Part shown: positions 8,340-47,769 of the stretch, one piece after another
How the letters are laid out: the number at the start of each line of letters is the position of its first letter
Position numbering within the stretch: position 1 is the first letter of the stretch
Assembly (NCBI GenBank): GCA_964016885.1
Contig: OZ024740.1
Location: 355,012,001 to 355,076,000 of the forward strand
From: Eledone cirrhosa
Lineage: Eukaryota
Direction of reading: 5' to 3'
DNA length: 64,000 nt
Notes under the pieces: model-generated
The model's database searches: none
The model's input: only the letters and a program-made list of their open reading frames with translations
Told to the model about the DNA's origin: nothing
Translations under genes and position numbers: made by a program

Positions 8340-9646
8340 TAACTGCAAAGCTATTTCACTAGCTTGAGGGCCAGGAGTTTTGAGCTTTATGCACTCTTCA
8401 AATATTACACAAGTTTGAAAAGTGCATTAAGCATAAAACTCCTGGCCCTCAAGTCACAGTTCTAGCTTCAGTGCTATGAAGTTATAGATCACTTTACCCA
8501 TGTGTTGAGCTTTTTGTTCACATTTGCACACTCAAACCTATACACACACGCACACACATATATGTATACTCACATATAATGTTATTTATTATAGTTAGTA
8601 TGTATTTGAGTGGATATGTGTATATATATATATATATATATAAGTAAAAGGTAAACAGAAATAACAAAACAAACAGTATAGAAGGAATATATTAGTTTAA
8701 TGCTTGAAATAGCAGGAAGAGTGTCTTAACGTTTCGGGCGTTAGTCATTCATTAGAAGAAAGAATGAGAAATTAGAAAAATTGAGGGATGGGCAGGGCTG
8801 AACCGGAAAATTTTTTTAGAGAAAAATAACAGGCCCATTGATCTTGCCATCTATATATATATTAATTGGCGGTGGTGATGATGATGATATATATATCTAC
8901 TTGTATCTAGTCACACAAACAAAATTAGAAATATAGTAATTCGTTTTCAAAAGCATTTGAATTTAAGTATTTTAAATCTTATTATTTTAAGTAGTTGTGC
9001 TTCAGAATTGCATGATTCCCTGAAAACTATTTCTTTAAATCTTAACAGCTTTAATGATTTAGCAGAATGTATCTAAACATGGGTTTGGTAATTCAAATGT
9101 ATATAGTATCTTTACTAGTAGACAGATAATTGTGAAACATTACAGCAATAAAGTAATGACTTATGTGATGTAGCTATAGTGCTGTTTTGTTTATGTGGTT
9201 TCACAAGGCACAAGACACTAAGAGTTAAATACACAGTTTAACCAATTGTCTAAAAGTTCTAAATATTTTGATACAGCAATTATTTTCCCCTTTTCCTCTA
9301 TATGGTTGACTTTTATTTAAAATGTGTTCCTACAATAGTCATTCATTTATATTTGATCACAAAAAAATTGAATAATTACTATAACTCTGAGGGTGGGCTA
9401 GTTAAAAATATTTTATTTGATTCAAGTGAAATTACAGTTTGTCAAGATTATCTTCTAAATTACAATCCAATCAACTGCTTAACTAGAGAATCCAATTTCA
9501 ATTTATGTTGTATTGAATAAAAAGAAAAAAACTATAACTTCTCTCTAAATGTGTGTGTGTAGTAAGTTCCGTAAGCTTTAGTGGCATCACTGAAGGCTTT
9601 CTGTTCATATGGTGTATCTAGAGCAAGACATCTAACTTAGCAATTA

Positions 9647-9704: not shown

Positions 9705-11439
9705 CATCATCATCATCATCATCAACGTTTAACGTCCGTGTTCCACGCTTGCATGGGTTTGGACGGGGGTAGTCCCACTTGAGGCAAGAGTGATTGTCTT
9801 GCTCGCATAGGACTGTCTGGCAGGTTTTCTACAGTTAGATGCCCTTCCTAACACCAACCACATTTACAGTGTGGGTCTGGGAGGTTTTTACCGTGTTGCC
9901 TACACGGCCACATTACAGCGTGGACTGTGTGTTTTTTTGTCGTGACACCTACACGATCTCATTTGTTTCGGCCTGGATGGCGCGGCACCAACATGACTTT
10001 ACATAGAACGGGGTGGTGTGGATGGGGTGGGGGTGGCGGCGGGAGGGGTGTATTTTGTTAGAGATGCCTACTGGCAAGGCGGGTCTTCTCTGTTACTGAG
10101 TACCGCCAAAGGTCACGGTCCAGTGACATTGTCTTGGAGAGGTGTAAGTGTGTGAGGTCGGAGTTTATCAGCTCATCCCATGTTTTTCTAGGTCTGCCTA
10201 TTCCGTGGCTACCGTCTATCTTTATTGCCCTGCACTTTGTAATACAGCTATCGACTTTCATGCGCATCACGTGTCCATACCAACGCAGCCTTCTCTCGAG
10301 TAAACAACATCTGATCCCTCTTATCTCTAATTTTTTCCTTAGTTCGTTTATGCTTTGCCGTTCACGTATATTACTGTTACACATCCAGCGGAGCATGCAA
10401 GCTTCGTTCCTCTCTAGTCTGCGTATATCCTCTGCACACAATGCCCAGGTCTCACTACCATGCAACATTGCTGTTCGTATGCAGGCATCGTACAACCTGC
10501 CTTTCATTTTTAGGGAGAACCCTTTAGCAGCTAATAGTGGTATAAGCTCTCTGAACTTTTTCCAACCAGTTCTGACTCTAGCTACAGTGCTTTCAGAGCA
10601 CCCTCCCCCACTGCTGATTTTATCGCCCAGGTAACGGAAGCTGTCCACTATTTCTATAGAACCCTCTGCGCAATTGAAAGAGCTAGTATTTTGTGGGCAC
10701 TTGCTGCTACTTATTGCACCAGAACACCGGCCACATGTAAAGTCTATGTTCTTAGTTAGCTTACCTGTGATCCCACTACATCTTTTATGCACCCATACTT
10801 TGCATTTAGGACATAAGATGGAGTTTCTACCTACGCCTTTCCTACATACCGAGCACGACCATTTCCCAGAAGGGACCGCCGCCTTGTTTTCTTTCCTACA
10901 AACTAGAACTTTGGTCTTAGCCAGGTTAATTTTAAGTCCTTTTGACTCTAGGCCGTGCTTCCATGTTTGGAATTTCTTCTCTAGCTCGGCCATTGATTCC
11001 GCTATGAGTGTCAGGTCGTCTGCGTATAGGAGTTCCCATGGGCAGCCTGTCTTGAACTCCTCTGTTATAGCCTGAAGGGCAATAATAAATAGTAGGGGGC
11101 TGAGAACAGAGCCCTGATGGACGCCAACTTTTACGCTAAACTCTTCACTATATTCGTTGTTAATTCTAACCTTGCTGACTGTTTCTTTATACATGGCTTG
11201 TATAGCCCTCACAAGCCATTCGTCAACGCCTAGTTTTCTAAGAGCCCACCAGATAATGGAGCGGGGGACTCTGTCGAAGGCTTTCTCCAGGTCGACAAAA
11301 GCTAAGTAGAGGGGTTTACCTTTAGCTAGGTACTTCTCCTGTAGTTGTCGTACTATGAAAAGAGCGTCTGTGGTGCTTTTGCCTGACACAAACCCGAACT
11401 GCATTTCATCTAGATCAATTCTCTCTCTGATTAGTTGCG

Positions 11440-11442
<3 letters not shown>
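9703..11442 (-). mobile_element. 5'-truncated young copy of the same RTE LINE (RT-PHD-C-terminus, ORF 10058..11404)
   Basis: Protein nearly identical to the C-terminal part of the 1076-aa ORF; (CAT)n tail at 9703; a ~28-nt deletion removes the normal stop; flanked by (TA)n on both sides. Confidence 0.95.
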
Positions 11443-11469
<27 letters not shown>

Positions 11470-11476
<7 letters not shown>

Positions 11477-34546: not shown

Positions 34547-34946
<400 letters not shown>

Positions 34947-36162
34947 TGACATTTTAAACAAACATACGGATTATTCTGAATCTCTCTCTTCTTCATCAAC
35001 ATCATCATCATCATCACCATTTAATGTCCATCTTCCAAGCTAGCATGGGTTGGACGGTTTTGTTCCACTTGAGGTGAGATTGGTCGAGAGACCATGTTTC
35101 GTTCATGCAGAACTGTATCTGGCAGGTTTTCTATGGCTGGATGCCCTTCCTAACACCAACCACATTTACAGTGTGGACTGGGAGCCTTCTTACTGTGTCA
35201 CCTACACGATCACTTTACAGTTGATAGAAATGGGAGGATGGAGTAGGGTGTGTGGGGTGGGGTGTATATTGAGTTAGGGTTATATTGGGTTAAGAGGTGT
35301 CTATTGACTGTAGGTTTAAGTTTGTATGCAAGGGAATGTGGGTCTTCTGTACCAAAGATCTCGATCCAGTGACATTGTCTTAGAGAGCTGTAAGTGATCA
35401 AGGTCAGTTTTTATCACCTCATCCCAGGTTTTTATATATGTATATATATAAACTTATTTTTATAGAGCACTGGAAGAATTTGAAATATGGAAATGTCAGC
35501 ACCCCATATGCAGAAAATGACTGCAATAATAGCCAATCACAGTTAAAAATAGCTGAGAAAATTGGGTAAAATACCCATAAAAATAGAAATAGTAGACAGT
35601 TGCTTCCATCCAATTTTTTACTACCTTTGGGATGTTCAAATTTCCATATATATATACATATATATTTATAAAATATGTAATACATGTTTGGAAATACGAT
35701 GATGTGTATATTCATTTTGATACAGTTATCCATGTGAAACTAAATAGAAAAAAGTGATAGAACTGCCTACAAGGATTGAACTATATATTGAACAACAACA
35801 TAGACCACTACACTACGGCAACCTGCCAACTTCTCAATCTCGTATACATAGCCCACACTGTAAAGTGGTCATGTAGGTGTCATGACAAAAAGCACCCAGT
35901 CCACACTATAAAGTGGTTATGTAGGTGTCACAACAAAAAGCACCCAGTCAACATTGTAAAGTGGTCATGTAGGTGTCATGACAAAATGCACCCAGTACTC
36001 ACTGTAAATGAGGTTTGCATTAGGAAGGGCATCCCGCTGTAGAAATCAAGCCAAAAAATCGGTTCTGTGTGAGCATGATATGTCCACCTGACCTAGCATT
36101 GCTCACAACAGGATAACTTGTCTAGCCCATGCCAGCATGGAAAAATGGACGTTAAATGGTGA

Positions 36163-36222
<60 letters not shown>

Positions 36223-36283
36223 GTGTTCTCCTAACTTTGGATATTCTTTAACAAACTACCCTATGTGTGTGTGTGTATAGTAT

Positions 36284-36849
36284 CTAGGCCATAGTATCTA
36301 GAATAAGGATGGGTTGGAAGAAGTTTAGGGAGTTGCTTTCTCTGCTGACGAAGAAGGGTTTCTCCCTGCGTATGAAAGGCCGGTTATATGATGCCTGTGT
36401 GAGGAGCACGATGCTGCATGGTAGTGAGACATGGGCAGCAACTGCAGAGGATATACGATGGCTGGAGAGAAATGAGGCAAGCATGCTCTGTTGTATGTGC
36501 AGTGTCAATGTGCGTGAACGACCCAGCATGAATGTGTTGAGAGAGAAACTGTCTGAGAGGGATAGAATGTAGTGTGCGAGAGAGGAGACTGAGGTGGTAT
36601 GGACATGTGATGCACATGGAGGATGACCGATGGGTGAAGAAGTGCCAGGAAATGCCAGTTGAAGGAAGACGTGGTAGAGGAAGACCATGAAAAACATGGA
36701 CGGAGGTGGTGAGAGCAGACCTCAGATCGCTGAAGCTCACGGTGGAGATGACAAAGGACCGTGACAAGTGGAGAGATGCTGTGCTGAATAAGACCCGTCC
36801 CACCCTTGCAAGCAGGGAAAAGCGGACGTAAAATGATGATGATGGTGAT
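36284..36849 (+). mobile_element. 3' fragment of the related RTE subfamily
   Basis: GWKKFRELL...GRLYDACVRSTMLHGSETW; same short 3' end as the 19629 copy; (GAT)n tail. Confidence 0.9.
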
Positions 36850-36860
36850 AATATATATAT

Positions 36861-37074
36861 ATAGTGTAGTTTGTTGGAAGAACACTTCTTAATATTTATT
36901 TCTAACCTCAAATAAATACAAATTGTTTCAATAAGTCATGGGCATCAACAAATCCTTTTATTATATATGTTATAAGACTGATGATGAATGTGTGCTTTAT
37001 GTATATAAATATATATATATATGTGTGTGTGTGTGCGTATGTGTATGTATATATATATATATATACATACATAT

Positions 37075-37142
<68 letters not shown>

Positions 37143-37276
37143 CACACATTCATCATCAGTCTTATAACATATATAATAAAAGGATTTGTTGATGCCCATG
37201 ACTTATTGAAACAATTTGTATTTATTTGAGGTTAGAAATAAATATTAAGAAGTGTTCTTCCAACAAACTACACTAT
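36861..37276. repeat. Perfect foldback: 140-bp inverted arms around a TA/TG/CA microsatellite spacer
   Basis: 36861-37000 is the exact reverse complement of 37137-37276. Confidence 0.97.
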
Positions 37277-37677
37277 ATATATATATCATCATCATCATCA
37301 TCATCAACGTTTAACGTCCGTGTTCCACGCTTGCATGGGTTTGGACGGGGGTAGTCCCACTTGAGGCAAGAGTGATTGTCTTGCTCGCATAGGACTGTCT
37401 GGCAGGTTTTCTACAGTTGGATGCCCTTCCTAACACCAACCACATTTACAGTGTGGGTCTGGGAGGTTTTTACCGTGTTGCCTACACGGCCACATTACAG
37501 CGTGGACTGTGTGTTTTTTTGTCGTGACACCTACACGATCTCATTTGTTTCGGCCTCGATGGCGCGGCACCAACATAACTTTACATAGAACGGGGTGGTG
37601 TGGATCGGGTGGGGGTGGTGGGACGGGGTGTATTTTGTTACAGATGCCTACTGGCTGGAGTAGGTTTTACTATATAT

Positions 37678-40600
37678 TTAGGTAAGGCGGGTCTTCTCTG
37701 TTACTGAGTACCGCCAAAGGTCTCGGTCCAGTGACATTGTCTTGGAGAGGTGTAAGTGTGTGATGTCGGAGTTTATCAGCTCGTCCCAGGTTTTTCTAGG
37801 TCTGCCTATTCCGTGACTACCGTCTATCTTTATTGCCCTGCACTTTGTTATACAGCTATCGACTTTCATGCGCATCACGTGTCCATACCAACGTAGCCTT
37901 CTCTCGAGTAAACAACATCTGATCCCTCTTATCTCTAATTTTTTCCTTAGTTCGTTTATGCTTTGCCGTTCACGTATATTACTGTTACACATCCAGCGGA
38001 GCATGCAAGCTTCGTTCCTCTCTAGTCTGCGTATATCCTCTGCACACAATGCCCAGGTCTCACTGCCATGCAGCATTGCTGTTCGTATGCAGGCATCGTA
38101 CAACCTGCCTTTCATTTTTAGTGAGAACCCTTTAGCAGCTAATAGTGGTATAAGCTCTCTGAACTTTTTCCAACCAGTTCTGACTCTAGCTACAGTACTT
38201 TCAGAGCACCCTCCCCCACTGCTGATTTTATCGCCCAGGTAACGGAAGCTGTCCACTATTTCTATAGAACCCTCTGCGCAATTGAAAGAGCTAGTAGTTT
38301 GTGGGCACTTGCTGCTACTTATTGCACCAGAGCACCGGCCACATGTAAAATCTATGTTCTTAGTTAGCTTACCTGTGATCCCACTACATCTTTTATGCAC
38401 CCATACTTTGCATTTAGGACATAAAATGGAGTTTCTACCTACGCCTTTCCTACACACCGAGCACGACCATTTCCCAGAAGGGACCGCCGCCTTGTTTTCT
38501 TTCCTACAAACTAGTACTTTGGTCTTAGCCAGGTTAATTTTAAGTCCTTTTGACTCTAGGCCGTGCTTCCATGTTTGGAATTTCTTCTCTAGCTCGGCCA
38601 TTGATTCCGCTATGAGTGTCAGGTCGTCTGCGTATAGGAGTTCCCATGGGCAGCCTGTCTTGAACTCCTCTGTTATAGCCTGAAGGGCAATAATAAATAG
38701 TAGTGGACTGAGAACAGAGCCCTGATGGACGCCAACTTTTACGCTAAACTCTTCACTATATTCGTTGTTAATTCTAACCTTGCTGACTGTTTCTTTATAC
38801 ATGGCTTGTATAGCCCTCACAAGCCATTCGTCAACGCCTAGTTTTCTAAGAGCCCACCAGATAATGGAGCGGGGGACTCTGTCGAAGGCTTTCTCCAAGT
38901 CGACAAAAGCTAAGTAGAGGGGTTTACCTTTAGCTAGGTACTTCTCCTGTAGTTGTCGTACTATGAAAAGAGCGTCTGTGGTACTTTTGCCTGACACAAA
39001 CCCGAACTGCATTTCATCTAGGTCAATTCTCTCTCTGATTAGTTGCGCTATTACTCTTTCCGTGACCTTCATGACCTGGTCGATTAATTTAATGCCTCTA
39101 TAGTTACTCCTATCTAGGGCGTCTCCTTTACCCTTATAACAGTTAACGATGATGCTGCTATGCCAGTCCTTCGGAACAACCCCATTCTGTACGACTTGGT
39201 TAACTATGCGGGTGACCATGGTGTGTCCCACCGTGCCAGATGCCTTCAGCATCTCAGCAACTATTTCCGAAGGCCCAGCCGCCTTACCAGTCTTCATATC
39301 CTTGATTGCCTTACTTATTATACTCCCCTCGACTAACACTGCTGGTCCCTCTATTGGGCCGATATGGGGGAGACTGCCTTTCTCCCAATTATTCTCCTCA
39401 TTTAGAAGCCTTTCATAGTGACACTTCCAAGCTACCTTCTTATCAGCGTCGGTGATGGCAAGTGTGCCATCGTCGTTTAGTACACACTTCTCCCCGACAA
39501 TATCACGGTTTTCCTTGACGCATTGCCTAGCAATCCTGAACACCTCACGTTTTTGGTCATCGCGTTGTAGAACATGCTTGAACTTTCTTTCCTCAGCTTC
39601 CCTTCTTGCTAAGTACACTTGTCTCCTAGCTTCCCTCCTGGCCACTTGATAGTCCTCTCTACTTCCCCCATCCCGCCATACTTTCCAAGCCTGCTTTTTG
39701 GCCTTAATTGACCCCTCCACCTTACTGTTCCACCACCATGTTACTCTCCTCCTGCCTACAGGCCTGCTCCAGCCACAGACCTCGTCTGTCGCCAACAGCA
39801 GGTTTGCTTTCAGAAATTCCCACTCTCCCTCTATATTGTCCGACTCTAAATGTTCTTCCTTACTGTCGAAAGCATCAAGTAATATGCTTTGAAATTTATT
39901 CCTGGCTGTGGGGTCCTTTAGCTTCCATATTTTCCTCCTGAGGATAGTCCTCTTCTGTTGTCGAGTACGTCTCGTCCTGACTATGAGGTCGCTAATTATC
40001 AGTCTATGTTGGGAGGTGCATTCTTCATGGGGGAGGGATTTAGTGTTAACAACAGACACTCTGTCACGTCTTCTGGTAAGGATATAATCTACCTGGCTTG
40101 TGTGTTCCCCGGATCTATAGGTGATCAGGTGATTGTCACGTTTTTTGAAGTTAGTGTTACAGATAGTTAGGTTATTTGCATCACAGAATTCCAGGATTCT
40201 GGAGCCTTCCTCATTTCTAGTACCAAACCCATAGCCTCCATGGATTTCGTCGTAGCCGTCACAATGTTGTCCAACGTGACCATTTAGGTCGCCTGCGATA
40301 ATTATATAGTCACTGTCGGATATTTGGGAGGTAGTTAGCATCAGTGTCTCATAGAATCTGTCTTTTATAGTGCCGGGCAGTCCGGATTGGGGTGCGTACG
40401 CAGATATTACTGTCACCGTAGTTCTATTGAGGACAAGTCGTATTTTAATTATTCTGTCGTTCACTCTATTTACGTCTATTATCTTATCTGCCCACTTTTC
40501 TGCTACCATGATTCCTACTCCACCCAGCCCATCGTCGTTTCCCACCCAGAAAAGCTTATAACAACGTTTTTTACCCTCAATGAACCTAGCAGACCCACCC

Positions 40601-40908
40601 CTCCACCTGGTCTCTTGAATACAACAAACATCGACCTCCTTACGTTCAAGCATTTCTACAACCTCGTTAGCGCGACCCTTTAGGGTGCCTACATTTATGG
40701 TACCAACTCTGAAGTTTTGGATTGCGTTTGGGGGTTGGGGGCGGTGAGGGGCGGGGGGCGATGGGGTTATGTTAGCCGTCCGCGGTCGAAACAATGAGGA
40801 GTGCTCGCATTCTCGTCCAAGGGGTGAATTTGTCTTTATCTTTGGCATTGTCGCTGAGCGTCCAGATTTTTCTCTCTCACCTCCACTCTCCAGGATTCCG
40901 CAGTCCAT
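37678..40908 (-). CDS. Intact RTE-clade LINE ORF: AP endonuclease + reverse transcriptase with inserted C4HC3 (PHD-like) finger, 1076 aa
   Basis: APE motifs (GTINVGTL, CIQETRW, SAYAPQ, IAGDLNGHVG, VDYIL, SQHR); RT motifs (NYRGIKL, QFGF, DLEKAFD, GVHQGSVLSP, YADD, YLG); RTE-type C-terminus (RLRWYGHVMR, GRPRKTW, DRDLWR). No stops. Confidence 0.97.
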   Translation of the reverse strand: MDCGILESGGEREKSGRSATMPKIKTNSPLGRECEHSSLFRPRTANITPSPPAPHRPQPPNAIQNFRVGTINVGTLKGRANEVVEMLERKEVDVCCIQETRWRGGSARFIEGKKRCYKLFWVGNDDGLGGVGIMVAEKWADKIIDVNRVNDRIIKIRLVLNRTTVTVISAYAPQSGLPGTIKDRFYETLMLTTSQISDSDYIIIAGDLNGHVGQHCDGYDEIHGGYGFGTRNEEGSRILEFCDANNLTICNTNFKKRDNHLITYRSGEHTSQVDYILTRRRDRVSVVNTKSLPHEECTSQHRLIISDLIVRTRRTRQQKRTILRRKIWKLKDPTARNKFQSILLDAFDSKEEHLESDNIEGEWEFLKANLLLATDEVCGWSRPVGRRRVTWWWNSKVEGSIKAKKQAWKVWRDGGSREDYQVARREARRQVYLARREAEERKFKHVLQRDDQKREVFRIARQCVKENRDIVGEKCVLNDDGTLAITDADKKVAWKCHYERLLNEENNWEKGSLPHIGPIEGPAVLVEGSIISKAIKDMKTGKAAGPSEIVAEMLKASGTVGHTMVTRIVNQVVQNGVVPKDWHSSIIVNCYKGKGDALDRSNYRGIKLIDQVMKVTERVIAQLIRERIDLDEMQFGFVSGKSTTDALFIVRQLQEKYLAKGKPLYLAFVDLEKAFDRVPRSIIWWALRKLGVDEWLVRAIQAMYKETVSKVRINNEYSEEFSVKVGVHQGSVLSPLLFIIALQAITEEFKTGCPWELLYADDLTLIAESMAELEKKFQTWKHGLESKGLKINLAKTKVLVCRKENKAAVPSGKWSCSVCRKGVGRNSILCPKCKVWVHKRCSGITGKLTKNIDFTCGRCSGAISSSKCPQTTSSFNCAEGSIEIVDSFRYLGDKISSGGGCSESTVARVRTGWKKFRELIPLLAAKGFSLKMKGRLYDACIRTAMLHGSETWALCAEDIRRLERNEACMLRWMCNSNIRERQSINELRKKLEIRGIRCCLLERRLRWYGHVMRMKVDSCITKCRAIKIDGSHGIGRPRKTWDELINSDITHLHLSKTMSLDRDLWRYSVTEKTRLT

Positions 40909-40959
40909 CCATCCATCATATATCGTATATCGAAAGGCAACCAGGCAAGCGATAGTATA

Positions 40960-41060
40960 GGCCTCTGGTTTCTGATTGGTCCGCGTGATAATACTGGTGA
41001 TGCGTGGGGGCTCTGTTTTATGATTGGTCCACGTAATAGCAATGGTGGTGTGTGGTGTTG
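40960..41060. promoter_or_regulatory. Duplicated ~48-bp CCAAT-containing motif in the LINE 5'UTR; one copy matches ERSE-II
   Basis: TGATTGGTCCGCGT (40973) and TGATTGGTCCACGT (41021); the ERSE-II consensus is ATTGG-N-CCACG. Function untested. Confidence 0.4.
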
Positions 41061-41062
41061 GG

Positions 41063-41176
41063 TAGCTAGCAAGAAGGTAATGATTGAGTGGGGTCCATGC
41101 TAGCTAGCAAGAAGGTAATGATTGAGTGGGGTCCATGCTAGCTAGCAAGAAGGTAATGATTGAGTGGGGTCCATGC
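41063..41176. repeat. Three copies of a 38-bp unit joining the LINE 5'UTR to the monomer array
   Basis: TAGCTAGCAAGAAGGTAATGATTGAGTGGGGTCCATGC at 41063, 41101, 41139. Confidence 0.95.
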
Positions 41177-44100
41177 ATTTAACAAGCGATTAACAAAAAT
41201 ACAAAATTTGTTCTGTTAAATACGTCCAAAAACCTACGTATTTAGCACTTAATAGAAACAGAAAATGTAGTTTGTTTTAGCGATAGATTGGCTATTTGGA
41301 CTTGATACGAAATATGGATTGTTTTGAAAATACGCTAGGAGAGAGAGAGAGAGAGAGATGAAGTCTGTACATTACGTTTACATGAATTTCGTTGGGACAG
41401 CAAGCAATGAAATGAAATTTGGCGAAGTGAATTCCTATCATATATTTATAGGGAGAGAGAGAGAGAGTGAGCGAGAGCGAGGGTAGGGGGCCACATGATG
41501 GCTGTGGGTGTTAGGCGTTTGACCGCCCCGTGCCTTCGAAGAAGGAAGAAGGAAAGGATTTTGCTTTTTTGTTTTGAAGATACGCTAGAATTAGGGATTG
41601 GGGTTTGAAAATACGTTAGGAATTAAGGTTTGAAAATAGCTAGCAAGAAGGTAATGATTGAGTGGGGTCCATGCATTTAACAAGCGATTAACAAAAATAC
41701 AAAATTTGTTCTGTTAAATACGTCCAAAAACCTACGTATTTAGCACTTAATAGAAACAGAAAATGTAGTTTGTTTTAGCGATAGATTGGCTATTTGGACT
41801 TGATACGAAATATGGATTGTTTTGAAAATACGCTAGGAGAGAGAGAGAGAGAGATGAAGTCTGTACATTACGTTTACATGAATTTCGTTGGGACAGCAAG
41901 CAATGAAATGAAATTTGGCGAAGTGAATTCCTATCATATATTTATAGGGAGAGAGAGAGAGAGTGAGCGAGAGCGAGGGTAGGGGGCCACATGATGGCTG
42001 TGGGTGTTAGGCGTTTGACCGCCCCGTGCCTTCGAAGAAGGAAGAAGGAAAGGATTTTGCTTTTTTGTTTTGAAGATACGCTAGAATTAGGGATTGGGGT
42101 TTGAAAATACGTTAGGAATTAAGGTTTGAAAATAGCTAGCAAGAAGGTAATGATTGAGTGGGGTCCATGCATTTAACAAGCGATTAACAAAAATACAAAA
42201 TTTGTTCTGTTAAATACGTCCAAAAACCTACGTATTTAGCACTTAATAGAAACAGAAAATGTAGTTTGTTTTAGCGATAGATTGGCTATTTGGACTTGAT
42301 ACGAAATATGGATTGTTTTGAAAATACGCTAGGAGAGAGAGAGAGAGAGATGAAGTCTGTACATTACGTTTACATGAATTTCGTTGGGACAGCAAGCAAT
42401 GAAATGAAATTTGGCGAAGTGAATTCCTATCATATATTTATAGGGAGAGAGAGAGAGAGTGAGCGAGAGCGAGGGTAGGGGGCCACATGATGGCTGTGGG
42501 TGTTAGGCGTTTGACCGCCCCGTGCCTTCGAAGAAGGAAGAAGGAAAGGATTTTGCTTTTTTGTTTTGAAGATACGCTAGAATTAGGGATTGGGGTTTGA
42601 AAATACGTTAGGAATTAAGGTTTGAAAATAGCTAGCAAGAAGGTAATGATTGAGTGGGGTCCATGCATTTAACAAGCGATTAACAAAAATACAAAATTTG
42701 TTCTGTTAAATACGTCCAAAAACCTACGTATTTAGCACTTAATAGAAACAGAAAATGTAGTTTGTTTTAGCGATAGATTGGCTATTTGGACTTGATACGA
42801 AATATGGATTGTTTTGAAAATACGCTAGGAGAGAGAGAGAGAGAGAGATGAAGTCTGTACATTACGTTTACATGAATTTCGTTGGGACAGCAAGCAATGA
42901 AATGAAATTTGGCGAAGTGAATTCCTATCATATATTTATAGGGAGAGAGAGAGAGAGTGAGCGAGAGCGAGGGTAGGGGGCCACATGATGGCTGTGGGTG
43001 TTAGGCGTTTGACCGCCCCGTGCCTTCGAAGAAGGAAGAAGGAAAGGATTTTGCTTTTTTGTTTTGAAGATACGCTAGAATTAGGGATTGGGGTTTGAAA
43101 ATACGTTAGGAATTAAGGTTTGAAAATAGCTAGCAAGAAGGTAATGATTGAGTGGGGTCCATGCATTTAACAAGCGATTAACAAAAATACAAAATTTGTT
43201 CTGTTAAATACGTCCAAAAACCTACGTATTTAGCACTTAATAGAAACAGAAAATGTAGTTTGTTTTAGCGATAGATTGGCTATTTGGACTTGATACGAAA
43301 TATGGATTGTTTTGAAAATACGCTAGGAGAGAGAGAGAGAGAGAGATGAAGTCTGTACATTACGTTTACATGAATTTCGTTGGGACAGCAAGCAATGAAA
43401 TGAAATTTGGCGAAGTGAATTCCTATCATATATTTATAGGGAGAGAGAGAGAGAGTGAGCGAGAGCGAGGGTAGGGGGCCACATGATGGCTGTGGGTGTT
43501 AGGCGTTTGACCGCCCCGTGCCTTCGAAGAAGGAAGAAGGAAAGGATTTTGCTTTTTTGTTTTGAAGATACGCTAGAATTAGGGATTGGGGTTTGAAAAT
43601 ACGTTAGGAATTAAGGTTTGAAAATAGCTAGCAAGAAGGTAATGATTGAGTGGGGTCCATGCATTTAACAAGCGATTAACAAAAATACAAAATTTGTTCT
43701 GTTAAATACGTCCAAAAACCTACGTATTTAGCACTTAATAGAAACAGAAAATGTAGTTTGTTTTAGCGATAGATTGGCTATTTGGACTTGATACGAAATA
43801 TGGATTGTTTTGAAAATACGCTAGGAGAGAGAGAGAGAGAGATGAAGTCTGTACATTACGTTTACATGAATTTCGTTGGGACAGCAAGCAATGAAATGAA
43901 ATTTGGCGAAGTGAATTCCTATCATATATTTATAGGGAGAGAGAGAGAGAGTGAGCGAGAGCGAGGGTAGGGGGCCACATGATGGCTGTGGGTGTTAGGC
44001 GTTTGACCGCCCCGTGCCTTCGAAGAAGGAAGAAGGAAAGGATTTTGCTTTTTTGTTTTGAAGATACGCTAGAATTAGGGATTGGGGTTTGAAAATACGT

Positions 44101-44193
44101 TAGGAATTAAGGTTTGAAAATAGCTAGCAAGAAGGTAATGATTGAGTGGGGTCCATGCATTTAACAAGCGATTAACAAAAATACAAAATTTGT
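41141..44193. repeat. Tandem array of six 496/498-bp units plus a ~70-bp partial unit
   Basis: Unit starts (GCTAGCAAGAAGG) at 41141, 41639, 42135, 42631, 43129, 43627, 44123; the only difference noticed is the length of one (GA)n tract. Confidence 0.97.
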
Positions 44194-44484
44194 ATATATA
44201 TATATATAGTGTAGTTTGTGTATATATATATATATATATATACATATATACACACACACACACATATAGGGTAGTTTGTTAAAGAATATCCAAAGTTAGG
44301 AGAACACTTATATATATATATATATATTGGATTAAATGCTCTGAAATAGCGATATATATGTGAAGATAGACATAGAATATTCGAAAATATTCTGTATGTT
44401 TATAATAAACATTTTGAAGACCTAATCGCTATAGAATAGAATACGTCACGTATTACAATTAGATTCTCGATAAAAGCAAGGGAA

Positions 44485-44527
44485 GTAACCTACGCGTTTC
44501 ATTCTTATTAGAAATCTTCAGGATTAC
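44485..44527 (-). ncRNA. Type I hammerhead ribozyme in the inverted copy
   Basis: Exact reverse complement of 44836-44878. Confidence 0.85.
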
Positions 44528-44835
44528 ATATCCAGTGCTTTTATCGAGAATGACACAGCTAGAGACTTATAGAATACTTAGCTGTGTACAGGAACTGGTT
44601 TGAAAGAGCGGTTGCCGGTCCGGCAGAAATTAGAAATTGGATTAAATGTATAAACATACAGAATATTTTCGAATATTCTATGTCTATCTTCACATATATA
44701 TCGCTATTTCAGAGCATTTAATCCAATTTCTAATTTCTGCCGGACCGGCAACCGCTCTTTCAAACCAGTTCCTGTACACAGCTAAGTATTCTATAAGTCT
44801 CTAGCTGTGTCATTCTCGATAAAAGCACTGGATAT

Positions 44836-44878
44836 GTAATCCTGAAGATTTCTAATAAGAATGAAACGCGTAGGTTAC
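44836..44878 (+). ncRNA. Type I hammerhead ribozyme, direct copy 1
   Basis: GTAATC-CTGAAGA-T-TTCT(AATA)AGAA-T-GAAA-CGCG-TA-GGTTAC: stem I GUAAUC/GGUUAC, CUGANGA and GAAA core, palindromic CGCG at stem III, predicted cut after A44872. Confidence 0.85.
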
Positions 44879-45144
44879 TTCCCTTGCTTTTATCGAGAAT
44901 CTAATTGTAATACGTGACGTATTCTATTCTATAGCGATTAGGTCTTCAAAATGTTTATTATAAACATACAGAATATTTTCGAATATTCTATGTCTATCTT
45001 CACATATATATCGCTATTTCAGAGCATTTAATCCAACTTCTAATTTCTGCCGGACCAGCACCGCTCTTTCAAACCAGTTCCTCTACACAGCTAAGTATTC
45101 TATAAGTCTCTAGCTGTGTGATTCTCGATAAAAGCACTGGATAT

Positions 45145-45187
45145 GTAATCCTGAAGATTTCTAATAAGAATGAAACGCGTAGGTTAC
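45145..45187 (+). ncRNA. Type I hammerhead ribozyme, direct copy 2
   Basis: Identical to 44836-44878. Confidence 0.85.
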
Positions 45188-45454
45188 TTCCCTTGCTTTT
45201 ATCGAGAATCTAATTGTAATACGTGACGTATTCTATTCTATAGCGATTAGGTCTTCAAAATGTTTATTATAAACATACAGAATATTTTCGAATATTCTAT
45301 GTCTATCTTCACATATATATCGCTATTTCAGAGCATTTAATCCAATTTCTAATTTCTGCCGGACCGGCAACCGCTCTTTCAAACCAGTTCCTGTACACAG
45401 CTAAGTATTCTATAAGTCTCTAGCTGTGTCATTCTCGATAAAAGCACTGGATAT

Positions 45455-45497
45455 GTAATCCTGAAGATTTCTAATAAGAATGAAACGCGTAGGTTAC
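45455..45497 (+). ncRNA. Type I hammerhead ribozyme, direct copy 3
   Basis: Identical to 44836-44878. Confidence 0.85.
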
Positions 45498-45764
45498 TTC
45501 CCTTGCTTTTATCGAGAATCTAATTGTAATACGTGACGTATTCTATTCTATAGCGATTAGGTCTTCAAAATGTTTATTATAAACATACAGAATATTTTCG
45601 AATATTCTATGTCTATCTTCACATATATATCGCTATTTCAGAGCATTTAATCCAATTTCTAATTTCTGCCGGACCGGCAACCGCTCTTTCAAACCAGTTC
45701 CTGTACACAGCTAAGTATTCTATAAGTCTCTAGCTGTGTCATTCTCGATAAAAGCACTGGATAT

Positions 45765-45807
45765 ATAATCCTGAAGATTTCTAATAAGAATGAAACGCGT
45801 AGGTTAC
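45765..45807 (+). ncRNA. Type I hammerhead ribozyme, direct copy 4
   Basis: Same core; G>A at the outer base of stem I. Confidence 0.83.
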
Positions 45808-45929
45808 TTCCCTTGCTTTTATCGAGAATCTAATTGTAATACGTGACGTATTCTATTCTATAGCGATTAGGTCTTCAAAATGTTTATTATAAACATACAG
45901 AATATTTTCGAATATTCTATGTCTATCTT

Positions 45930-45975
<46 letters not shown>

Positions 45976-47304
45976 TGTTCTCCTAACTTTATATATATAT
46001 CATCACCGTTTAACGTCCATTTTTCCACGCTGGCATGGGCTAGACAAGTTATCCTGTTGTGAGCAATGCTAGGTCAGGTGGACATATCATGTATGTGTGT
46101 GTGTATATATACACACACACACGCATACATATATGTATGTATATAGGCGAGAACAGAGGTATTATATCTATAGGAACTTCTGTATGCAGATGACCTAGTT
46201 CTCATAGCTAAATTTGGGGAAAAATGTGAGAAGAAATTCCAAATATAGAAGCAAAACTGAAAATTGAGAAGTAAATCTAGTAAAAACAAAAGTTTTAGTT
46301 AGAAAGAAAAACAGGACTCTTCTACCATCTGCAAAGTACCCATAGTCAATATACTGTATAGTTATTGCTAGTAATTCCATATTGTGTACCCAATGTAAAC
46401 TATTCTTGCTAACAAATATTAAATGATGATGATGGTGTTCTGAAAGTGTAAATAAATCAGGGAGCTATTAACTCTTCTGGCAACAAAATAATTCTCTATT
46501 ACAATGATTGGTAAATTGTATGATGTTTATATATGAAATGCAATGTTGTGTGGCAGCTAAACATAGACAAAGAATACAGAAAATATGCTAAGACTGGAAA
46601 GAAATGAAGCAAGTGTGCTCGTTTGGAAATGTTATGTTAGTGTGAATGAATAATGGAGTACAAAAGAGCTGAAATTTTAAAATATGGGTATAAGACTAAT
46701 CAGATATTGTGTGCAAGAAAGGAGGTTCCTCTGGTACAGACATGATGTGTATGGAAGTTGATTTTTGGGTAAAGAATGCCAAGTGGAATGGATCAATGGA
46801 AGGCATAGGAAGAAGTTATGAAAGCTCATCTCAGGAATCTTAACCTCATAAGGTAAATAACAAACCATGATAAGTGACAATACACTGTGCTGGAAAAGCT
46901 CCATCCACTCCTTGAAAGCATAAATACATGTAAAATGATATGATGAATAGGTAACATCAAAATTTACAGTGACGTTATGTTGTTGCAATTTTGTTGTTCT
47001 AAATTATTAGTTGAATATATTTTCCTCCCTTTCCTCATTTCTTCTCCTTCCCTTCCTCCATTTCCTCTTCCTCGCATGTCAGTGTTTTTGAAATATTGGG
47101 TGAAATGTCTGCTTTCTCTGCTAACAAGATTGACTGGGTGACCACAGATGAAGTATTATCTGTCTAAGAAAAGGAAATCAAACCTTTTAGATGCAATCTT
47201 AGCTACATGGAGAATATAGATTTCTTTCAGAAACTGTTATTCCTAGAATTGCTTTGATAGTCCTAGAATGTATGTGATGTAAAAGCTGATGAATTAGAAG
47301 TATT

Positions 47305-47563
47305 AACTCTTTTGATACCAAACCATCTGAAACCTCCTGGATTCTATGATACAAAACTGCTCATTTTAAATTGTTCAGACTTATATCAAAATGCTCCCAT
47401 GATAATTTTGTTTAAGAAACATCTATAAAGTTATGTTCCAAGCACCAGCTTAATAATGAAAAAAGTTATTTTATTAAATCCCTCCAATGTTTTAATACAT
47501 TTCCACAATTAATTGAAACATAGGCAATATCTTTCATTAGAAAGATGGCAATGAAAGGGTTAA
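47305..47563. mobile_element. Second TTAA-flanked MITE family
   Basis: TTAACTCTTTTGATACCAAACC...ATGAAAGGGTTAA; relatives at ~6606-6868, ~22230-22567, ~31159-31420(-), ~60598-60845. Confidence 0.7.
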
Positions 47564-47589
47564 GTTATTCCTGTTACATTCATCACTGA

Positions 47590-47769
<180 letters not shown>

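Follow-up and report, generated by a model that had tools for sequence, protein, structure and literature searches.

A young hammerhead retrozyme insertion in an octopus intron, probably built by a Penelope-type enzyme primed from both target strands at two fixed RNA sites

Insertions of Penelope-like elements (PLEs) carry an inverted, 5'-truncated copy, often have a tail of 30–40 bp at one end and show a bias for (TA)n targets (PMC8557442). The inversion has been explained by self-priming on an antisense template (PMC3846280), and how these elements build insertions that are both tandem and inverted is named as an open problem (PMC8557442). For the Poseidon PLE of Anolis carolinensis, in vitro work described extension of both target strands from two internal RNA start sites that bound the tail, with the start site equal between strands, and modelled the enzyme as a dimer (PMC11167929). 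Metazoan retrozymes are described as tandem repeats of ~170–400 nt with low GC, and their mobilisation by PLEs has been argued so far from common ribozymes, co-occurrence and phylogeny (PMC7229834; bioRxiv 10.64898/2026.07.22.740005). The second of these accounts links retrozymes to, or derives them from, PLE terminal repeats (pLTRs) by phylogeny, and its available text never uses the word 'tail'; it also reports that self-cleavage was absent in eight of nine Xenopus retrozyme dimers tested (bioRxiv 10.64898/2026.07.22.740005).

The DNA analysed here, referred to as the window, is a stretch of 64,000 nt from the octopus Eledone cirrhosa (contig OZ024740.1) that contains an insertion built from a 310-nt unit of 34% GC. 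Judged from its sequence, this unit is a metazoan non-LTR retrozyme, non-coding and with a predicted self-cutting ribozyme. It agrees with the published descriptions in being tandem, ~300 nt long and low in GC, with arrays of up to 15.6 copies; there is no ORF of at least 170 aa over the array, and the unit lacks the ORF combining reverse transcriptase (RT) and GIY-YIG that marks an autonomous PLE. Every unit carries a minimal type I hammerhead on the same strand as the direct array, the core, helices I–III and cut triplet of which were read by hand in 5/5 copies and in sister families. Its core is standard, helix II has 4 bp with a U-U pair at the base, and helix III consists of one pair capped by a palindromic tetraloop, a form from which the hammerhead is predicted to act as a dimer; a co-fold prediction has two hammerhead copies pairing via the palindrome. 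Rfam gave zero matches to the unit at the gathering score, so that the hammerhead call rests on the motif. At low stringency HH9 reached only 17 bits (E 0.73), and the top matches, to miRNA models, were rejected as non-specific since they matched the palindrome. Folding of the unit beat 100/100 shuffles (z -5.35).

Phases of the unit are numbered so that phase 1 is window position 45268. At the window locus (Table 1) the inverted arm is 323 nt long, or one whole unit plus 13 nt, matches the unit exactly and runs from phase 67 to phase 79 of the next copy; the direct array has a period of 310 and runs from phase 1 to phase 53. The two arms meet at a blunt junction with no overlap and (AT)n abuts both outer ends, the last 9 nt of the short arm being indistinguishable from the TA run. 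This is exactly the arrangement given in the first-pass annotation, which had described a leading inverted copy of one unit plus 13 nt, a direct join to copies that begin at a different point of the unit, and (TA)n at both outer ends. It had also singled out the 13 nt as a terminal redundancy, which is a coincidence of a fixed 3' end at phase 79 with a 5' truncation at phase 67; it carries no special meaning because 5' phases are uniform across the unit. Among the direct copies, copy 2 (44959–45267) has five differences, four of which are absent from all other fetched loci, and copy 4 has a single difference.

Table 1. Features of the insertion and its host intron, in window positions
Feature	Position	Strand	Remark
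Host intron of FAM135A-like gene	34942–47614	+	Flanking exons 34788–34941 and 47615–47727; contains the insertion
18-nt left flank	44292–44309	+	Recurs inverted at 45973–45990
Left (AT)n target remnant	44310–44327		
Long arm	44326–44648	-	RNA-sense 3' end outward; bears the 35-nt tail
35-nt tail, phases 45–79	44326–44360	-	Stretch between the two fixed 3' ends; offset identical in sister family B
Inverted-arm hammerhead	44485–44527	-	Antisense to host transcript
Head-to-head junction	44648–44649		Two 5'-truncated ends meet, blunt at the window locus
Short arm, 4.17 tandem copies	44649–45940	+	Ends at short site 45931
Hammerhead copy 1	44836–44878	+	Predicted cut after 44872; copy that the inverted arm would mask
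Hammerhead copy 2	45145–45187	+	Predicted cut after 45181
Hammerhead copy 3	45455–45497	+	Predicted cut after 45491
Hammerhead copy 4	45765–45807	+	Predicted cut after 45801; one change in helix I
Three-hairpin module	45880–45936	+	Immediately 5' of the short end; found in every unit, the position being that of the last copy
Right (AT)n target remnant	45933–45973		

Elsewhere in the window, ~200 nt at 36074–36286 (-) with an unbroken (TA)n form an inverted paralogue of the insertion flanks (44245–44327 plus 45930–46091); as its (TA)n is uninterrupted, it represents a likely empty site. This paralogue and the insertion flanks bracket a long LINE. The inverted copy of the 18-nt left flank sits outside the right (TA)n, and both copies of the 18 nt are without one base found in the paralogue; the duplication is possibly a TA-hairpin repair product. 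It was rejected as a part of the element since it is absent from every other fetched locus. On present evidence the window locus is a real, young insertion rather than an artefact.

A DNA search with the unit gave 412 candidates, 39 of them scored, and 34 of these loci were fetched, followed by 20 picked as pairs or exceptions and then by 40 more (nine pairs and 31 of 85 unpaired ends); the 95 loci of this family (family A) that were examined are a non-random sample. Copies are very young, the first set of loci showing 123 differences over 55 kb of arm sequence. RNA-sense 3' ends occupy two fixed sites separated by 35 nt, one at phase 44 (read as 44–53 because the next 9 nt resemble target) and the other at about phase 79, and the 5' ends are scattered over the whole unit. 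Two arms were present at 73/95 loci of this non-random sample: 66 combine a long with a short arm, one is long+long, one is short+short and five have one atypical or unread end. The 22 one-armed loci use the long site (11), the short site (10) or are unclassed (1). The Penelope-like geometry recognised in the first-pass annotation is therefore family-wide among the loci examined; its expectation that other loci would show inversions is borne out, but its permuted ends are not supported, as variation is confined to the 5' side and the 3' ends are fixed.

Since the fetched sample is non-random, arm pairs were also sought by exact end patterns alone, which occur genome-wide at 111 long and 174 short ends by comparison with 0 for reversed control patterns; pairing was based on the first 100 of the 111 long and the first 100 of the 174 short ends. 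Outward-facing pairs numbered 38, of which 37 were long+short and one short+short (C1 to C5:107.5 Mb, among the matches listed). Chance pairing would give about half mixed, and 37/38 has p ~1e-10 among the matches listed. The family A exceptions are L137, long+long with a complex junction, and L138, short+short. Targets are AT-rich, with at least 9 A/T in the next 10 bases at 151/165 typed ends, and the 14 exceptions are mostly variant ends that continue into TA runs.

In 129/162 arms the sequence crosses one or more predicted ribozyme cut sites, which indicates a circle or an uncut multimer as template and bears out the circular or multimeric RNA suggested for the window locus, genomic data not separating a circle from a linear multimer; a cleaved linear monomer as sole template was rejected on the same count. 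Slightly more 5' ends than expected lie immediately 3' of the cut (15/162 at phases 225–240, p 0.02, the interval having been chosen post hoc), which may reflect some cleaved templates or an RT pause.

Several further features of family A were seen in passing. Eight long ends match only to phase 72 (L186, L188, L190, L191, L193, L196, L200 and L201), and the seven of these with a flanking sequence have a 3-nt shorter variant leading into a TA run; these are possibly a subfamily or a priming slip. A two-armed insertion on C28 (L156) is repeated at 4.09-kb spacing with an identical junction, copied later in a larger tandem duplication. Arrays of 8–15 units (L031, L045, L050 and L064) contain variants recurring at intervals, which suggests local expansion after insertion.

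Sister family B (315 nt, 67% identical to the unit; 1,440 candidates, 40 scored) ends at the two positions homologous to those of family A and does so without an AT run at the short site, so that priming of the short arm by AT complementarity, which had been considered, is not needed. A long arm with an opposite short arm was found at 13/30 family B loci; one further locus ends at an intermediate position, and the remainder have a single arm or an unresolved structure. Family C has a 316-nt unit, and 18 of 20 hand-picked loci of families C and B were two-armed: 14 long+short, two with an intermediate shorter end, one atypical and one long+long (L175, family B). Across these sister families (L132:1541–1640, L171; G000 genome-wide) a shared pattern has 2,269 matches with internal copies counted, and the hammerhead core of family C starts with U instead of C.

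Ordinary PLEs of the same genome were also surveyed. GIY-YIG loci gave 10,596 candidates, of which 150 were scored, and in some of them a single ORF also includes RT. In two PLE families with RT+GIY-YIG encoded by their longest copies, all 6 two-armed loci pair a long with a short arm, and the tails measure about 45 and 65 nt. When 40 GIY-YIG loci were examined by BLAST and nhmmer, no autonomous PLE was found to end in the three-hairpin module or to carry the 35-nt tail; two partner matches in these loci were set aside, a nested family B copy and a weak match at L095 (E 1.5e-4). By eye, PLE terminal repeats at L094:6895–6940 and at the 3' ends of L102 and L066 have hammerhead-like motifs with U and A replacing the usual C3-G8 pair. 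Another small hammerhead-bearing repeat, 73% like the unit around the ribozyme, lies between TA runs at L094:7580–7720 and 8500–8710.

The three-hairpin module is kept in three families, where it shows four double-sided changes, pairing in 99.5% of cells and G-U pairs that fall on the strand of the hammerhead. Its structure was read from the same 10 related sequences that give the covariation, which is thus suggestive only; the module is a candidate signal for the PLE reverse transcriptase.

Taken together, the fixed 3' ends, scattered 5' ends, long+short pairing and junction microhomology are read as two cDNAs made in a single reaction from the two target strands and joined by repair. We consider it probable that the window locus is a young insertion of a non-coding 310-nt retrozyme into (TA)n, likely made by a borrowed PLE enzyme that primed from both cut target strands, each at one of two fixed internal RNA sites 35 nt apart. 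A PLE RT-endonuclease dimer would bind the three-hairpin module and nick both target strands; each target 3' end would prime copying of the tandem or circular RNA inward from its own fixed site; both cDNAs would stop at arbitrary points, and repair would then join them head to head. Coupling of site to strand is suggested by the insertions themselves; the anole in vitro study, for its part, saw no start-site difference between strands (PMC11167929). Evenly balanced, in our estimation, is the broader proposal that all two-armed Penelope-type insertions are made by an asymmetric enzyme dimer through coupled priming of two strands at two fixed RNA sites, with the 310-nt octopus ribozyme RNA and its three-hairpin signal as a complete protein-free substrate. 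If true, the asymmetric-dimer reading would account for the inverted arm and the tail at once, and the insertion footprint would show that PLEs move retrozymes.

The first-pass annotation had proposed a strand switch. In such a route a single priming event is followed by fold-back of the first cDNA, or an antisense template primes itself (PMC3846280), so that the second arm is copied from the first. The junctions offer this some encouragement, as microhomology of at least 2 nt is present at 27/42 insertion-free junctions against 18% expected; inserted bases occur at 19/61 junctions. Arm lengths are correlated as well (rho 0.63, p 3e-5, 37 end-ascertained pairs), a relation expected if both arms grow in one reaction but likewise compatible with one arm being a copy of the other; the correlation is absent from the first 20 loci (rho -0.21), chosen for their full-length copies. 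Close to the junction at two loci (L042 and L064) the arms have variants in common, a sign of some exchange between them. However, at 9/19 loci where both arms are shorter than one unit neither arm could have been copied from the other, since the short arm extends further 5' than the long arm and has no tail; at L139 the two arms correspond to neighbouring stretches of the RNA that do not overlap. The remaining 10/19 and the window locus are formally compatible with copying, and the exclusion applies at the level of the family. Nor are the junctions near-symmetric (phases within 20 nt at 6/61 versus 8 expected; phase differences uniform, KS p 0.31), and one-armed loci start at either site. Family B arms differ within loci as much as arms of separate loci do (11 loci, permutation p 0.38). 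In family C the two arms of a locus belong mostly to one subfamily (5.4% versus 13.4% difference), with some loci discordant, and each insertion may have drawn on one RNA or on two. Fold-back as a general route is, on these insertion sequences, already refuted, and we regard a strand switch as an improbable account of the insertion.

A different possibility is that the unit is no free retrozyme but only the stump of a terminal repeat (pLTR) belonging to an ordinary PLE with coding capacity. The derivation of retrozymes from pLTRs in the 2026 preprint (bioRxiv 10.64898/2026.07.22.740005) lends itself to this, and an evolutionary origin of the unit from a pLTR is likely. As a description of the present element it is nonetheless very unlikely, given that up to 15.6 copies of the unit follow one another directly, end to start, that the array has no ORF of the length given above and that 0/40 GIY-YIG loci have the unit as terminal repeat.

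Two separate insertions into one (TA)n run, or later rearrangement of a tandem array, would be exceedingly unlikely to give what was observed, even though TA runs gather many nested insertions, flanks resemble the ends of other repeats and the variants recurring within arrays suggest local expansion after insertion. Separate insertions should yield long/long and short/short pairs about half the time, by comparison with 1/38 seen among the matches listed, and usually leave target DNA between the arms, whereas the arms of 61 simple loci abut within -11 to +16 nt. An assembly artefact (a chimeric fold-back read or a misjoin) is the least likely of all, for although a palindrome next to a TA run is difficult to assemble and the junction is known here from the assembly, the 61 simple loci have individual junctions with the same two ends, the one-long-one-short rule holds in diverged sister families and PLEs, and a paralogous empty site is present in the window.

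FAM135A proteins of octopus and argonaut were the best homologues of a window ORF, and mapping of FAM135A homologues placed nine 3' exons of a FAM135A-like gene at window 17028–51072 (+), the large exon being only ~72% identical to Octopus proteins and the C-terminal exons 88–100%. The inverted arm is 100% complementary to 44715–45036 over 322 nt with a 66-nt loop, and a perfect stem of 322 bp (~-500 kcal/mol) is predicted in the + strand pre-mRNA. The ~310 bp of near-perfect duplex with one direct copy that had been anticipated from the window would thus be somewhat longer and perfect, formed with copy 1, the intron being transcribed on the + strand. Pairing of the inverted arm with copy 1 in the pre-mRNA would mask hammerhead 1 and leave three free. 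We take the duplex to be probably a by-product of the insertion route, any functional role, such as the suggested use by ADAR or Dicer, being hypothetical. Genomic copies bear no ADAR imprint, with 12 A>G versus 13 T>C among the 123 differences of the first set, a count that probes edits carried from template RNA into DNA and not editing of the pre-mRNA.

Other repeats share the window. An intact LINE ORF of 1141 aa with endonuclease, RT and a PHD finger (37681–41103, -) lies in the same intron as the insertion, with six 496-bp tandem repeats, 99% identical, at its 5' side (41139–44193) and a 556-nt imperfect palindrome (85%) near the LINE 3' end at 36794–37349. A partial ORF related to the 1141-aa ORF is found at 10061–11473.

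The case for the enzyme that moves animal retrozymes has rested on co-occurrence and phylogeny, and the footprint described here would tie retrozymes to PLE enzymes. The one-long-one-short rule favours double priming over self-priming, and the model can be put to the test in an existing in vitro system, since the RNA is short and its two start sites are mapped. Material is ample, as the clade supplies hundreds of near-identical family A copies and about two thousand sister-family pattern matches. As two-armed insertions predominate, the family is a source of long perfect hairpins, of which one or more lie in an intron. Octopuses belong to an animal group known for heavy RNA editing; the effect of perfect hairpins seeded in such a group is hypothetical.

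L1 twin priming resembles the octopus insertions in that cDNAs are primed by two target 3' ends and join head to head at short microhomologies. Its second primer, however, anneals upstream of the first cDNA at an internal position that varies, whereas the octopus sites are both fixed and the arms usually overlap on the RNA. The closest relatives of the unit itself are the metazoan retrozymes (PMC7229834; bioRxiv 10.64898/2026.07.22.740005), with which it shares a ~300-nt low-GC tandem unit, one type I hammerhead per unit, the lack of coding capacity, dispersed arrays and the presence of PLEs in the genome. Published axolotl ribozymes likewise have a helix III of one pair with a palindromic tetraloop and a U-U pair at the base of helix II. 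Circular RNA and cleavage were demonstrated for those retrozymes whereas the octopus unit is known here from sequence alone, and the available portions of the published accounts are without inverted arms, fixed 3' ends or tails. A search of the open literature, with subscription papers outside it, returned no report of a double-end footprint in retrozymes, nor of a cephalopod retrozyme.

Endonuclease-positive PLEs (PMC8557442; PMC3846280) show the same head-to-head inverted arm, one-end tail, (TA)n targets and microhomology at the 5' join, and differ in that the octopus unit has no ORF. In the available text of the PLE papers the tail is optional or often one-ended, whereas in the octopus family the rule is near-strict (37/38 among the matches listed), and the self-priming model (PMC3846280) is disfavoured by the octopus family data. 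The likeness to Poseidon (PMC11167929) extends to two internal start sites that bound the tail, lie downstream of the hammerhead cut and fall at a stem-loop, to extension of both strands and to AT-rich targets; the two sites were not linked within single insertions in the available account of that system, and the distance from cut to start is 130 and 165 nt in the octopus unit by comparison with about 85–92 nt for the Poseidon site given. The geometry of an inverted arm with a tail is therefore already known as a published PLE signature; what is added here, as read from genomic insertions, is the counted one-long-one-short rule, the exclusion of fold-back as a general route and footprint evidence for a PLE enzyme moving retrozymes.
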